A stretch of DNA of 64,000 nucleotides from Verrucomicrobiota bacterium. GTDB lineage: Bacteria; Verrucomicrobiota; Kiritimatiellia; UBA8416; JABMPJ01. The notes under the pieces are model-generated. The model saw only the letters and a program-made list of their open reading frames with translations. It was not told the DNA's origin and searched no databases. Numbering within the stretch: the first letter of the stretch is position 1; each line of letters begins with the position of its first letter. Of the stretch, positions 20,260-40,171 are shown piece after piece. The stretch lies in the NCBI GenBank assembly GCA_018648805.1, contig JABGQM010000013.1, positions 20,067 to 84,066 of the forward strand, written 5' to 3'. The translations under genes were made by a program, and so were the position numbers.

Positions 20260-22203
20260 CTACTCCACTGGTGTCAGCGTGAAGTCTCTTACGGTGAGGC
20301 CTTTGTTGGGGGCCTTGCAAGTGAACTGGAGTTTGTTCCTGCCGGCTTTCAGATCCATGGTGACCGGCTTGGTGTCCACCCAGTCGCCCATGGAGAGCGG
20401 GATCTCGATCTCATACATGTTGCGGCGGTTGACCCGCATCAGGAAAATGCGGTCTATGGTTACCGACACAATCTGGGCCGAGAAGGCATACTTGCCGGCC
20501 TCGGGCAGCTCCAGCGTGTATGAAAGCAACTCGGGGCGGATGCCCCCCAGGCTGTAGTGCGCTTGAACGAACGAGTCGTCGAAGCTCTTCATGAAGCGGA
20601 TCTTCTCGGTGCTGGACTCCTTTGAACAGGCGGCTACGGGCACCGTGATGACCCCATTGGCATCGGTGGTGATGGTGGTGTCCGCTTCGGTCAGCTCAAT
20701 TTGCGGGACGTCTGGTGCCTCGGGAACCGCATCGGCCTCAGGAGCCCACCCGGTCTTGTCCGACACAGCCGCCTCATTGGACTCGGCAAACTCGGCCCCG
20801 GTCATCGCCTGCTCTTTCAGATCCTCTGCTTCAACGACAGCCAGTTTCTTGTAGAAGGCCAGCGCTTTCCAGAACCCGCCGCCAACGCCAAAGCTCATGC
20901 GATTAACGCCGCCTTCTCCGAACGCATCACCCAACCAGTTGGCGCGGTGCACCTGCCTATACGCATCTGTGATCGGGCGCACTCTGGATTCCAGTTCGAA
21001 GTCGAGACCACACTGTCCGCGGAAGCGATTAAAGGTCCAGTGTGCGCCAAAGACGGTCGTCCACCCGTCCGGTGTCCAGTGGCTCATGGCCGCATGTCCC
21101 GTCTGAGGAGCGGGTCGGGACGGAATACCAAACGCGTGCGTCGCCATCCGGCCCGTAAAGGCACGGGGGCCACAGATCCCGCCCACAAGAAAGTAGCTCT
21201 GCATAGCAGACAGGTTGTGGGCCTCGCGACCGGCAGCACGCGCGCCGCCAGCGTTTGATGTATAGGGAACATCGCTCTTGGTGATGCGACAGTACCGCCA
21301 CCTATAGTCTTCCTTGCGCATGTGGTCGGGGCGATAGTTGCGCATCATCTTGCGCATCCAAACGGCATCCTCAAGCGGGCGAAAGGCAAATATGAAGCGG
21401 CAGTCCCAACCCGTCAATGTGCCAAAGGCCGGGTCCAACTCACCACCCGCGTAGGCCTTCTCATAACTCAGATAGAAGTCCACCATGGCCTCGGCGGGCG
21501 TCTTGCCTTCCGGTACGTGGCTACCATCGGGGTGTTCCAGCGAGCTGGCCAGCGCCCACAGGCGAAAGAAACCACCCTGGGCATCCGAGGCGGCATTCTT
21601 GCTGGCCTTCTGGATGGCCTTGTAGTTGCGTATGGCCTGACCGTATTTGGCCTCATAAGCGCCGCCCAGCTCCATCACATCCACGATCAGAGCGTCGTCG
21701 TTGAGCAGCAGATCCACATACCCCTTCTCTGTTTCGCCCTGCTGAGCGAATTCGGCCATCTGCTTAGCGCCATGTGTCAGCAATGCGCACTTTGCCAACT
21801 TAGCGTGCATCTCATCGCCGCTCAGGAAGGGAGTCGCCTCTTCAAGCAAGGCCTCGACAGCAATGATGGCATTGCTCTGCGCTGCCGCGTATGGGGGATA
21901 GCCTCTACAGAAGGTAACCGGCGCCATCTTGAGGTCGTTCGGATTCGGCGCCTTTGGGATCTTTGCAATCTTGCCATGCGCCTCCACAAAAACGCTCTTC
22001 TTCGCCTCGTCGACAGCTGGAGCCGCGGCGGTGATCTCTTTCTTCAGACCTTCAAGCATCTCGGTGTACGATGCCAGCAGCTTCTCCCCTGCGGGGCTAA
22101 GCGGAGTCTTCTCCCCGCGGGCCTGAGTAAAGGATGCGATCACGCAGAAGGCGAGGCAGGCGGCCATGATGAACGTGCCCAGAGATCCACAACTGCTTCC
22201 CAT
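20260..22203 (-). CDS. Secreted transglutaminase-like (Cys-His-Asp) domain protein C with C-terminal beta-sandwich region (paralog of 35628..37772)
   Basis: The probable start is MGSSCGSLGTFIMAACLAFCVIASFTQA (signal peptide); the track ORF start at 22350 would translate a REP element. Core GGICGPRAFTGRMATHAFGIPSRPAPQTGHAAMSHWTPDGW resembles the transglutaminase-like core G.C..FA...GIP.R...G.H.W...P..GW. Shared blocks NYRPDHMRKEDYRWRY, HWTPDGW. Confidence 0.55.
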   Translation of the reverse strand: MGSSCGSLGTFIMAACLAFCVIASFTQARGEKTPLSPAGEKLLASYTEMLEGLKKEITAAAPAVDEAKKSVFVEAHGKIAKIPKAPNPNDLKMAPVTFCRGYPPYAAAQSNAIIAVEALLEEATPFLSGDEMHAKLAKCALLTHGAKQMAEFAQQGETEKGYVDLLLNDDALIVDVMELGGAYEAKYGQAIRNYKAIQKASKNAASDAQGGFFRLWALASSLEHPDGSHVPEGKTPAEAMVDFYLSYEKAYAGGELDPAFGTLTGWDCRFIFAFRPLEDAVWMRKMMRNYRPDHMRKEDYRWRYCRITKSDVPYTSNAGGARAAGREAHNLSAMQSYFLVGGICGPRAFTGRMATHAFGIPSRPAPQTGHAAMSHWTPDGWTTVFGAHWTFNRFRGQCGLDFELESRVRPITDAYRQVHRANWLGDAFGEGGVNRMSFGVGGGFWKALAFYKKLAVVEAEDLKEQAMTGAEFAESNEAAVSDKTGWAPEADAVPEAPDVPQIELTEADTTITTDANGVITVPVAACSKESSTEKIRFMKSFDDSFVQAHYSLGGIRPELLSYTLELPEAGKYAFSAQIVSVTIDRIFLMRVNRRNMYEIEIPLSMGDWVDTKPVTMDLKAGRNKLQFTCKAPNKGLTVRDFTLTPVE

Positions 22204-22322
22204 GTAGCCCGCTCCCCGCGGAGCGGGGTAAACTCGCCGCTTGCCCCGCCTTGACGGGGAGAGCGAGGCCGATGTGCCGATGTCTACGCGTGGCCTCGCG
22301 CTTGGCAAGCGCGGGCTACGTA
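22204..22322. repeat. Composite REP-like element (long-variant arm with nested palindrome plus a second arm) in the B-C spacer, abutting the C start codon
   Basis: gtagcccgctccccgcggagcggggtaaactcgccgcttgccccgccttgacggggagagcgaggcc, a 22-nt spacer, then gcctcgcgcttggcaagcgcgggctac. The long arm matches the 46233..46342 variant. Confidence 0.8.
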
Positions 22323-22349
22323 CAGAACGATTCAACATGCGTAACTTCA

Positions 22350-39110: not shown

Positions 39111-39142
39111 GATCGATTGCTGCCGATTGCTATCGATCTGCT
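39111..39142. repeat. 10-bp tandem repeat CGATTGCTRY x2 (+CGATCTGCT) in the MoxR-DUF58 spacer
   Basis: gatcgattgctgccgattgctatcgatctgct. The unit is shared with 25258..25303. Confidence 0.7.
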
Positions 39143-39151
39143 CTCTCCGCG

Positions 39152-40171
39152 CTACTTCTTGCCATACAGCTTCTCATCGGACGGAATCTCTGCCAGCAGC
39201 TTCTCGATCAGCGTGTCGGAGGTCATGCCTTCGGAGCGCGCGGCGAAGTTGGGGATGATGCGGTGACGCAGGATCGGCAGCGCCAGCGACTGGATATCCT
39301 CGATGGCCACGTGACAACGCCCGCGCAGTGCGGCGCGTGCTTTGCCTGCAATAATGAGGTTCAATGAGGCGCGCGGTCCGGCGCCCCAGGCCATCAATTT
39401 CTTGACGAACTCAGGAGCATCCGGCTCATTGGGACGGGTTGCCCGCACCAAAGCGGCTGCATATTCGAAGACATGATCCGCAACCGGAATACGCCGCACC
39501 ACGTGCTGGAACTCAATAATGGCCGCGGCATCCACCACCGTGTTGACAACGGGCTCGTCGTCGCTGGTCACGCTACGCATGATATCCAGCTCTTCGCTCT
39601 GGGTAGGATACTTCACCATGATATTGAAGAGAAAACGGTCGAGCTGAGCTTCGGGCAACGGGTAGGTGCCCTCCTGCTCGATCGGGTTCTGCGTTGCCAG
39701 CACAAAGAAAGGCTTATCGAGCACATATTCCTCACCACCGGAGCTGACGCGCTTCTCCTGCATCGCTTCCAGCAGCGCGGCCTGCGTCTTGGGCGGGGTC
39801 CGATTGATCTCGTCGGCCAGCAGCAGGTTGGTGAAGACCGGTCCCTTCTGGAACTTGAAGCGACGCTCGTGCGTCTCAGGATCTTCCTGCAGTAGCTCGG
39901 TACCGGTGATGTCCGAAGGCATCAGGTCGGGTGTGAACTGGATGCGCTTGAAGCCCAGCGACATCGTCTCGGCCAGCGAACTCACTAGCAGCGTCTTGGC
40001 CAGCCCCGGCACACCCACCAGCAGACAGTGACCGCGTGAGAAAATGGCAATCATCATTTCATCAATGACATCATCCATACCCACAATCGTTTTGCGCAGC
40101 TCCGTGACAATGGCATCACGCGCTTCGCCGAGCTTCGCCACGGCCTGTACATCGTCAGTTTCATTGCTCAT
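39152..40171 (-). CDS. MoxR-family AAA+ ATPase
   Basis: Walker A LLVGVPGLAKT and Walker B NLLLADEINRTPPKTQAALLEAM; MoxR-type C-terminal region. The start MSNETDD follows a GAGGGAG RBS (the track ORF extends 12 codons further). Confidence 0.9.
   Translation of the reverse strand: MSNETDDVQAVAKLGEARDAIVTELRKTIVGMDDVIDEMMIAIFSRGHCLLVGVPGLAKTLLVSSLAETMSLGFKRIQFTPDLMPSDITGTELLQEDPETHERRFKFQKGPVFTNLLLADEINRTPPKTQAALLEAMQEKRVSSGGEEYVLDKPFFVLATQNPIEQEGTYPLPEAQLDRFLFNIMVKYPTQSEELDIMRSVTSDDEPVVNTVVDAAAIIEFQHVVRRIPVADHVFEYAAALVRATRPNEPDAPEFVKKLMAWGAGPRASLNLIIAGKARAALRGRCHVAIEDIQSLALPILRHRIIPNFAARSEGMTSDTLIEKLLAEIPSDEKLYGKK

Follow-up and report, generated by a model that had tools for sequence, protein, structure and literature searches.

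We analyzed a 64,000-nucleotide (nt) stretch of the Verrucomicrobiota contig JABGQM010000013.1 (hereafter the window), which carries on its minus strand a string of genes assembled around a MoxR-type AAA+ ATPase, a DUF58 protein, and a BatA-type membrane protein. MoxR-DUF58-BatA modules are widespread, and their role has been enigmatic ever since 1999, when the Bat operon was described. While this core is already known, we found a conserved cluster of Verrucomicrobia, Lentisphaerae, and Planctomycetes in which a membrane module is combined with two unannotated exported protein families, termed A/B and C/D after the paralogues that the window contains. An original prediction, made from the letters of the window, had listed eleven co-directional minus-strand open reading frames (ORFs), all of which were found where it had placed them, and its identifications (MoxR, DUF58, BatA, squalene-cyclase repeats, a phosphoesterase, and a transposase associated with repetitive extragenic palindromic (REP) sequences, or RAYT) were confirmed by Pfam and NCBIfam searches. 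The features of the string are the following, in the order of the minus strand and with lengths of proteins in amino acids (aa):

39152..40171, minus strand: MoxR-type AAA+ ATPase, cytoplasmic (Pfam AAA_3 E 1.4e-62, 209.8 bits versus a cutoff of 27; AAA_lid_2 E 5e-16)
38132..39106, minus strand: DUF58 (vWA-like) protein, partner of MoxR (Pfam DUF58 E 2e-46, VWA_2 E 5.9e-8)
37773..38131, minus strand: 359-nt DUF58-D intergenic region, a candidate operator/promoter region with four motif copies
35628..37772, minus strand: D, predicted exported protein with coiled coil, Cys419/His445 core, and the fold of carbohydrate-binding modules (CBM) 6/35, without Pfam or NCBIfam match
33399..35570, minus strand: BatA-type membrane protein (BatA E 2.6e-16, VWA_2 E 3.8e-8, CARDB E 2.9e-5)
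31010..33397, minus strand: 795-aa membrane protein with two transmembrane segments, a divergent vWA domain, and GATase1-like and Ig/MG2-like domains (sub-threshold Pfam matches)
26457..31010, minus strand: 1517-aa DUF4175-like protein (DUF4175 27.1 bits versus a cutoff of 27.3)
25351..26460, minus strand: predicted exported alpha/alpha-toroid protein of 369 aa (Pfam SQHop_cyclase_C/N)
22350..25346, minus strand: B, two thioredoxin-fold domains lacking CxxC and a C-terminal TPR, with an in-frame inverted REP doublet (REPIN) at 23991-24074
22204..22349, minus strand: B-C gap, taken up by nested REP sequence (a REP at 22293-22319 plus a 69-nt element)
20260..22203, minus strand: C, predicted exported paralogue of D from the cassette-associated subfamily, with a Cys344/His370 core and a CBM-like C-terminus
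17274..20153, minus strand: A, paralogue of B, with an in-frame REPIN at 18906-18989
16354..17301, minus strand: predicted exported calcineurin-like phosphoesterase (Pfam Metallophos E 2.7e-11)

Conservation of the gene neighborhood

A search of metagenomes anchored on A/B left 80 loci, and the counts given here use those with at least 1.5 kb of sequence upstream (50 loci) or downstream (47 loci). The toroid gene stood directly upstream of the first A/B gene in 40 of the 50 loci. In every locus that extended far enough, the DUF4175-like, GATase-like, and BatA genes came next, with their order unchanged. A C-like gene, encoding a protein 43-69% identical to C, lay right after the last A/B gene in 36/47 loci and elsewhere in the locus in three more, while the number of A/B copies per locus varied from one to three. 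The resulting order of BatA, GATase-like, DUF4175-like, toroid, (A/B)1-3, and C (hereafter the cassette) was present in loci L005-L007 and L175-L178, on the P0122 contig, and in most of L092-L171; these include a Lentisphaeria metagenome-assembled genome (MAG; L005) and two long metagenomic contigs. All four C-like proteins that were sampled independently were encoded within the same cassette. The closest relative, the P0122 contig with a B protein 80% identical to ours, has the order BatA-795-1517-toroid-B-C-A-M16-Metallophos, and thus shares with the window both the B-C-A order and a Metallophos gene near A.

MoxR-DUF58 and the cassette are neighbors in variable order. MoxR copies 90-92% identical to that of the window were encoded downstream of C-like genes in L006 and L166, and a single fixed operon for the whole string is unlikely because MoxR-DUF58 follows the cassette in these two loci instead of preceding it.

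D is not a conserved member of the cluster. Upon inspecting the neighborhood within 10 kb of 80 D orthologues from 80 species-level genomes, we found a DUF58, BatA, GATase-like, or DUF4175-like gene in none of them (0/80), the exceptions to a complete separation being L014, with A/B and a C-like gene upstream, and L055, with a distant MoxR gene on the opposite strand. The original prediction had coupled A/B and C/D together to the MoxR/vWA system. As conserved companions of a Bat-like cassette, A/B and the C-type half were upheld but D was not; the occurrence of these families apart from MoxR/Bat genes, which it had named as counterevidence, is what we observed for the D half of C/D. Sequence comparison places D in a separate and very large subfamily of Planctomycetes-Verrucomicrobia-Chlamydiae (PVC) bacteria, sister to that of C, with more than 3000 homologues at 60-73% identity in Planctomycetota, Verrucomicrobiota, and Lentisphaeria. 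We also observed that the segment 36001-38000, the region of the D gene, has a GC content of 0.577 compared to 0.60-0.62 in its neighbors, and negative GC/AT skews (-0.135/-0.137) stronger than theirs; the low GC content and the skews are compatible with D having moved into its present position.

Proteins of the string and their probable link to sugar polymers

The BatA protein starts with a double-transmembrane N-terminus (PF07584; TIGR02226, E 2.8e-19), followed by a vWA domain, a CARDB domain, and a C-terminal transmembrane segment. In the 795-aa protein, both transmembrane segments are N-terminal and a vWA domain at about residues 75-260 was detected through sub-threshold VWA_CoxE, VWA_2, and DUF58 matches only, a pattern that was repeated in four orthologues scanned individually; the GATase1_like match of this family likewise stayed sub-threshold (best 6.8e-6, in an orthologue), as did the MG2/Ig-like domain at residues 621-712. 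The 1517-aa protein combines three N-terminal transmembrane segments with a long Ala/Leu/Glu-rich helical region, and DUF4175 was matched in 6/9 of its orthologues (best E 1.3e-15); a literature search for DUF4175 returned only Acinetobacter AdvA, which is unrelated. The label of the toroid spans prenyltransferase, squalene-cyclase-repeat, and TED-like proteins: its orthologues matched SQHop_cyclase in 27/27 cases, Prenyltrans in 8/27, and TED_complement weakly in 10/27 (best 6.5e-4), and a faint TED_complement match was seen also in the toroid of L176 (L176:3135-4244). Weak signals of the alpha-2-macroglobulin type are spread over separate proteins of the string, namely TED_complement in the toroid, MG2 in the 795-aa protein, and CARDB in BatA, and may be a coincidence of folds or the hint of a capture device.

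The cassette is Bat-like and not a canonical Bat operon; neither a BatD nor an SH3 domain was matched in any of the 15 window proteins scanned. With the Bat operon (Bacteroides fragilis; Borrelia bb0170-bb0176; Leptospira bat) the locus shares the MoxR AAA+ protein, DUF58, and a BatA with double transmembrane segment and vWA domain, as well as TPR-containing partners and, as a candidate BatB-like second vWA membrane protein, the 795-aa protein with its sub-threshold matches, TPR being present in our locus only at the C-terminus of A/B. In contrast to that operon, the cassette has, besides the missing BatD, no SH3/TPR protein of the BatE type, its candidate second vWA protein also has a GATase1-like and an Ig-like domain, and it includes additional proteins, namely the DUF4175-like protein of ~1500 aa, the toroid, the double thioredoxin-fold/TPR proteins, and the Cys/His-CBM proteins, with MoxR-DUF58 on either side of it among the loci studied here. 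A second comparison, made by description and not by sequence, is offered by Rhizobium leguminosarum cmdA-cmdD (RL3499-RL3502), a broadly conserved MoxR-DUF58-membrane-protein operon tied to the envelope, which consists of four genes only and has no exported A/B, C/D, or toroid proteins. We take this operon to include membrane proteins of the BatA-N/DUF4175 type. PMC5700661 reports envelope and cell-shape defects for the cmdA-cmdD mutants and a vWA domain facing the periplasm for the BatA-type protein BB0173 of Borrelia.

A and B are paralogues, as had been proposed (37% identity over about 980 aa), and their assignment to the thioredoxin fold was borne out by Thioredoxin_8, AhpC-TSA, and Redoxin matches in family members. 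Among 47 members scanned with Pfam, Thioredoxin_8 was matched in 16, AhpC-TSA in 5, and TPR_14 in 10. The best Thioredoxin_8 match fell on domain 1 (E 7.5e-6), homologues matched AhpC-TSA (E 4.5e-6; 27 bits versus a cutoff of 26) and Redoxin (E 1.5e-3) when domain 2 was scanned alone, and the C-terminus resembled TPR domains of the Protein Data Bank (PDB; E 2e-3). Both domains carry TlpA-like hallmark motifs in the alignment; at the place of WCxxC, the family members displayed from it read WS(K/Q)xS (domain 1) and F(V/I)EPP (domain 2). Hence, the description of these proteins as Cys-less applies to the thioredoxin active-site positions, but not to the whole proteins, which contain 14 (A) and 11 (B) cysteines. 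A/B appear to be exported double thioredoxin-fold/TPR proteins that, judged from these motifs, are redox-dead and hence probably act as scaffolds for binding, not as reductases. With 82 clusters at 90% identity, the family is small; its members come from Verrucomicrobiota, Akkermansiaceae, and Lentisphaeria, mostly from metagenomes.

The paralogy of C and D was likewise upheld (37% identity over about 557 aa, E 2e-102). Both consist of a coiled coil, the Cys/His core, and a CBM6/35-fold domain. Neither protein gave a Pfam or NCBIfam match at full length, and their isolated cores had no Pfam match at E<=10. The profile of the core collected 723 clusters at 50% identity and its Cys and His (Cys419 and His445 in D) were invariant in all 60 aligned sequences. 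A first full-length model of D, built on 30 close sequences, had a predicted local distance difference test (pLDDT) score below 50 exactly in this conserved core and was replaced by a model from a truncated query and the 60-sequence alignment, which reached a pLDDT of 89.7 and a predicted template-modeling score of 0.89. In truncated numbering, helix 130-143 of the model starts at the Cys and is followed by strands 148-153, 156-163, and 166-170, three antiparallel strands that carry the His in a papain/transglutaminase-like arrangement. As modeled, the core would thus show the Cys at a helix N-terminus and the His on a following strand that are characteristic of the transglutaminase/papain-like superfamily. 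The C-terminal domain has a CBM6/35 fold, with Foldseek matches in the PDB at E 6e-7 to 1e-5 and a template-modeling score (target) of up to 0.78, and an hmmsearch match to the CBM35 structure 2vzp at E 9.5e-4. When searched with the core and CBM together, Foldseek (PDB, BFVD) returned only beta-sandwich/CBM structures among the 50 matches listed.

Further evidence comes from the genomic surroundings and fusion partners of the C/D core. SASA (PF03629) was the commonest immediate neighbor of D orthologues (13/106 neighbors), a SASA esterase gene follows the D gene in the two closest homologues (73% and 69%), and SASA stands directly after the C-like gene inside the cassette of L005, L007, L177, and L178. 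SASA is joined to the core on either side (P0355, P0385), and further fusion partners are FGE-sulfatase-like domains (P0366, P0369, and L006:17588-20203, a protein of 871 aa) and a fucosidase domain of glycoside hydrolase (GH) family 29 (P0050), with P0395 and P0415 likewise among the entries in which it is joined to other domains; it also occurs within giant Ig-repeat surface proteins of 1800-2700 aa. The core seems to behave like an undescribed module of carbohydrate-active proteins, and the neighbors, fusions, and CBM fold of C/D point to carbohydrate chemistry, not protein cross-linking. Compared to SASA esterase loci and carbohydrate-active enzymes (CAZymes) with CBM6 or CBM35, C/D are alike in ending in the CBM6/35 fold and in their SASA, FGE-sulfatase-like, and GH29 neighbors or fusions, but differ in a Cys/His core that matches no Pfam/NCBIfam family, PDB sequence, or retrieved fold. 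The searchable literature yielded no account of either family, A/B or C/D, or of an association with the cassette.

The window itself is rich in CAZymes, with GH4, GH95, sulfatase, WbsX/GH99-like, and GH106-like genes and a SASA gene at 44708-46252; sugar ABC transporter genes lie directly upstream of MoxR, and a similar set of genes surrounds the D orthologue of L004. Amid these CAZyme genes are three DUF6288 paralogues (3621-7310, 12695-15193, and 49813-51639), two of them with PDZ matches, and DUF6288 genes occur near D orthologues as well (L008, L014, L024, L038, L040, L085). A link to the mucin utilization loci of Akkermansia was considered and dropped; secondary sources give MUL1 as Sus-like and MUL2 as pilus-like.

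The original prediction had read C/D as transglutaminase-like enzymes with a Cys/His/Asp triad which, together with A/B, process or cross-link secreted proteins in a manner coupled to MoxR/vWA; this would amount to an exported analogue of YebA/TgpA. The invariance of Cys and His across 60 proteins and the topology of the high-scoring model fit such enzymes, and D occupies the position of the transglutaminase-like gene in the three-gene MoxR-vWA(DUF58)-transglutaminase-like (YebA/TgpA) system described by Zhang and Aravind in 2012 (PMC3495828), of which Ralstonia L088 (MoxR-DUF58-DUF3488) is an example: in both, MoxR and DUF58 are followed by a protein with a conserved Cys/His pair. However, D had no detectable similarity to Transglut_core or to any other Pfam family, a search of the core profile against PDB sequences gave 0 matches at E<=10, and hhalign of the core against the TgpA-like protein of Ralstonia L088 gave a probability of 0.1, with the limited power of a single-sequence template. 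The Asp of the TPDGW motif varies in the family (D/E/S/N/T/Q), and D, with one N-terminal signal/transmembrane segment only and a CBM, is predicted to be exported and is not a polytopic protein with a cytoplasmic domain. Elsewhere it is unlinked to MoxR/DUF58 (80/80 other genomes), while carbohydrate enzymes are the fusion partners and neighbors of its core. The YebA/TgpA operon is a positional analogue only, the transglutaminase label for C/D would describe a resemblance in modeled arrangement, and the proposed cross-linking of secreted proteins, which found no support from profiles or folds, is an improbable function for this locus.

Transcription units and palindromic elements

The string had been described as mostly start/stop-coupled. 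This was so only from BatA through the 795-aa, 1517-aa, and toroid genes to B, five central genes that are tightly coupled with gaps of 1, -1, -4, and 4 nt, but not at the other junctions, which have wider gaps (MoxR-DUF58, 45 nt; DUF58-D, 359 nt; D-BatA, 57 nt; B-C, 146 nt; C-A, 106 nt). The phosphoesterase gene overlaps the end of A by 28 nt. As only 57 nt separate it from BatA, D probably heads the transcription unit of the cassette in this genome. For C and D, the shorter starts of the original prediction (22203 and 37772) are preferable because they result in signal peptides and because the longer C ORF crosses REP elements, which make up its extension at 22204-22350. The true starts of B and DUF58 are probably at 25211 and at the ATG at 39061, respectively.

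The DUF58-D gap contains four copies of the motif AGTTCACGACAA[AT]GTT, compared to 0.07 expected, at 37903 and 37941 on the plus strand and at 37995 and 38034 on the minus strand. The array spans 37903-38049 with spacings of 38, 54, and 39 nt and two copies per orientation, and a scan of the rest of the window and of 174 fetched loci gave no further copy. From this arrangement, the repeats are a candidate operator array for some regulator. Scans of the window DNA for promoter and terminator consensus sequences did not rise above the shuffled expectation, and Rfam gave no match in the window.

A REP family with the consensus GCCTCGC.CTCGGCGAG.GCGGGCTAC is present in 15 copies in the window, versus 0 expected, and forms five REPINs. 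These elements and the transposase gene are located as follows:

15290..16369, minus strand: Y1 (IS200-like) transposase, probable RAYT of the REP family (Pfam Y1_Tnp E 3.7e-8)
18906-18989: REPIN in A, in frame
23991-24074: REPIN in B, in frame
40220..40324: REPIN doublet between an ABC permease gene and MoxR (copies 40230-40300)
3456-3525, 22293-22319, 44592-44662, 46316, 47427, 47912, and 49734: other REP copies

The RAYT gene, three genes downstream, is not part of the Bat-like system. Its true start is probably downstream of the annotated one, because the Y1_Tnp domain begins only at residue 128; the 5' part of the ORF (16054-16171) holds about five copies of a 15-nt tandem repeat, GCGCCCCTCCCCAGA, and a 32-nt palindrome.

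The REPINs of A and B occupy the same variable linker of the family, where they encode SESLALGESGLQGxGLQSSPRSPSARPA, and in the mRNA such an in-gene REPIN would form a hairpin of -69.9 kcal/mol (z -4.8). The insert is missing from B orthologues that are 80% and 74% identical, so that the REPINs were acquired, or spread between A and B by conversion, only recently, whereas the duplication that gave rise to A and B is ancient. The two in-gene REPINs are more like each other than like the intergenic copies, which suggests conversion or a shared constraint. As in REPIN-RAYT systems, we thus have a short palindrome in inverted doublets with a Y1 transposase gene nearby. Rickettsia palindromic elements are known for insertion in frame, and two REPIN copies here lie in frame within genes in the same manner; the present case differs from known REP and palindromic insertions in that it occurs in a verrucomicrobial MAG and that both in-frame copies sit at a homologous linker shared by two anciently duplicated genes. 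It illustrates cleanly how mobile palindromes can enter coding sequence.

Two further observations concern the REP copies. A 69-nt element at 22203-22271 recurs inverted at 46232-46300; the two copies are 94% complementary, and both are embedded in REP sequences. The first closely precedes the start codon of C and the second falls at the 5' end of the SASA gene, and the element resembles a REP variant of composite or nested type. Two REP singlets (47427-47453 and 47912-47938) lie inside the GH106-like ORF 46596-49841, where they are either further in-frame insertions or a sign that this ORF is over-extended or split.

A putative envelope/glycan machine and its alternatives

The conservation of the cassette is solid, while its functional reading is inferential. 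We lean, with slightly better than even confidence, toward a composite locus made of MoxR-DUF58, the conserved PVC cassette, and D, for which an envelope/glycan machine is likelier than a protein cross-linker. Signal peptides were predicted for the toroid, A, B, C, and D, and BatA, the 795-aa, and the 1517-aa proteins are membrane-anchored with large extramembrane parts. The composite would have three layers: the known cytoplasmic MoxR-DUF58 pair; the PVC cassette, with three proteins anchored in the inner membrane and the exported toroid, A/B, and C, to which elsewhere a SASA protein is often added after C; and D, from a subfamily found beside SASA esterases in polysaccharide-degradation loci and placed here between DUF58 and BatA. 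MoxR and DUF58 would assemble or remodel an inner-membrane complex containing vWA domains, and this complex would hold periplasmic partners through vWA, TPR, and thioredoxin-fold surfaces, recruiting the A/B scaffolds and the toroid. C/D would then bind, and probably modify, carbohydrate in step with O-acetyl esterases of the SASA type, on a substrate that may be a glycan bearing acetyl or sulfate groups or a glycoconjugate of the envelope.

A more specific version, which we put forward only tentatively and think clearly less likely to be right than wrong, is that the C/D core is an undescribed carbohydrate-active catalytic domain working with SASA esterases (it might, for example, be an amidase, esterase, or acyl-transferase whose substrates are glycans with acetyl or sulfate groups) and that the cassette is a MoxR-serviced periplasmic machine, anchored in the inner membrane, for polysaccharides or envelope glycans.

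Several points weigh against the composite machine. A catalytic role of the core Cys and His is inferred from their invariance alone, and the placement of the bulk of the three membrane proteins in the periplasm is a prediction. MoxR-DUF58 was linked to the cassette in only three loci (the window, L006, and L166) and in two orders, and the 10-kb flanks end before whatever precedes BatA in other genomes. Furthermore, the glycan link may simply follow from a general abundance of CAZymes in these genomes, against which the domain fusions argue.

Such adjacency might in fact be incidental throughout, with A/B, C, and D being ordinary polysaccharide-utilization genes that lie beside a Bat-like module and have no functional coupling to it. 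For D this holds (0/80), the REPs together with three of the gaps (359, 146, and 106 nt) split the string into several likely transcription units, and about 10/50 A/B loci have no toroid gene upstream. As an account of the whole cassette we nevertheless consider it doubtful: the order of BatA, GATase-like, and DUF4175-like genes, then toroid, A/B, and C, recurs in numerous metagenomic lineages down to ~40% identity, reaching Lentisphaeria (L005) and an Akkermansiaceae A/B homologue (P0159), with intergenic gaps that are small or overlapping, and it would be difficult to account for conservation of this degree if linkage were not under selection.

We find it quite unlikely that the locus is a classical Bat system for aerotolerance or oxidative stress, with A/B as TlpA-type reductases of thiols and disulfides in the periplasm. 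Although MoxR, DUF58, and BatA make up the core of the Bat operon in Bacteroides (PMC5700661; PMC3557215) and the folds of A/B are TlpA/AhpC-like, CxxC is missing from both thioredoxin folds across the sampled family members, the window proteins scanned include no BatD domain, the gene context is rich in CAZymes and not redox-related, and Leptospira bat mutants are reported to have no oxidative-stress phenotype (PMC3557215). Least credible of all is a disassembled alpha-2-macroglobulin-like device for envelope defense or capture, composed of Ig/MG-like membrane proteins and a separate TED-like toroid, for while MG2 is weakly matched in the 795-aa protein and its orthologues, CARDB in BatA, and TED_complement in 10/27 toroid orthologues, all profile matches on which it would draw are below the Pfam thresholds and the same toroids match squalene-cyclase/prenyltransferase repeats better.

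Overall, what is new at this locus is a conserved, PVC-specific extension of the MoxR-DUF58-BatA module by two families that have no Pfam or NCBIfam model, whereas for D, position alone gives no ground for annotation as a Bat component. The evidence from fusions and neighborhoods turns the vague label of "envelope/stress" into a testable hypothesis of glycan handling. If the C/D core is indeed carbohydrate-active, this would provide a concrete substrate class for Bat/MoxR-vWA modules in at least one lineage, and the cassette would be a machine used by Verrucomicrobia, Lentisphaerae, and Planctomycetes to capture or process polysaccharides or their own envelope glycans.

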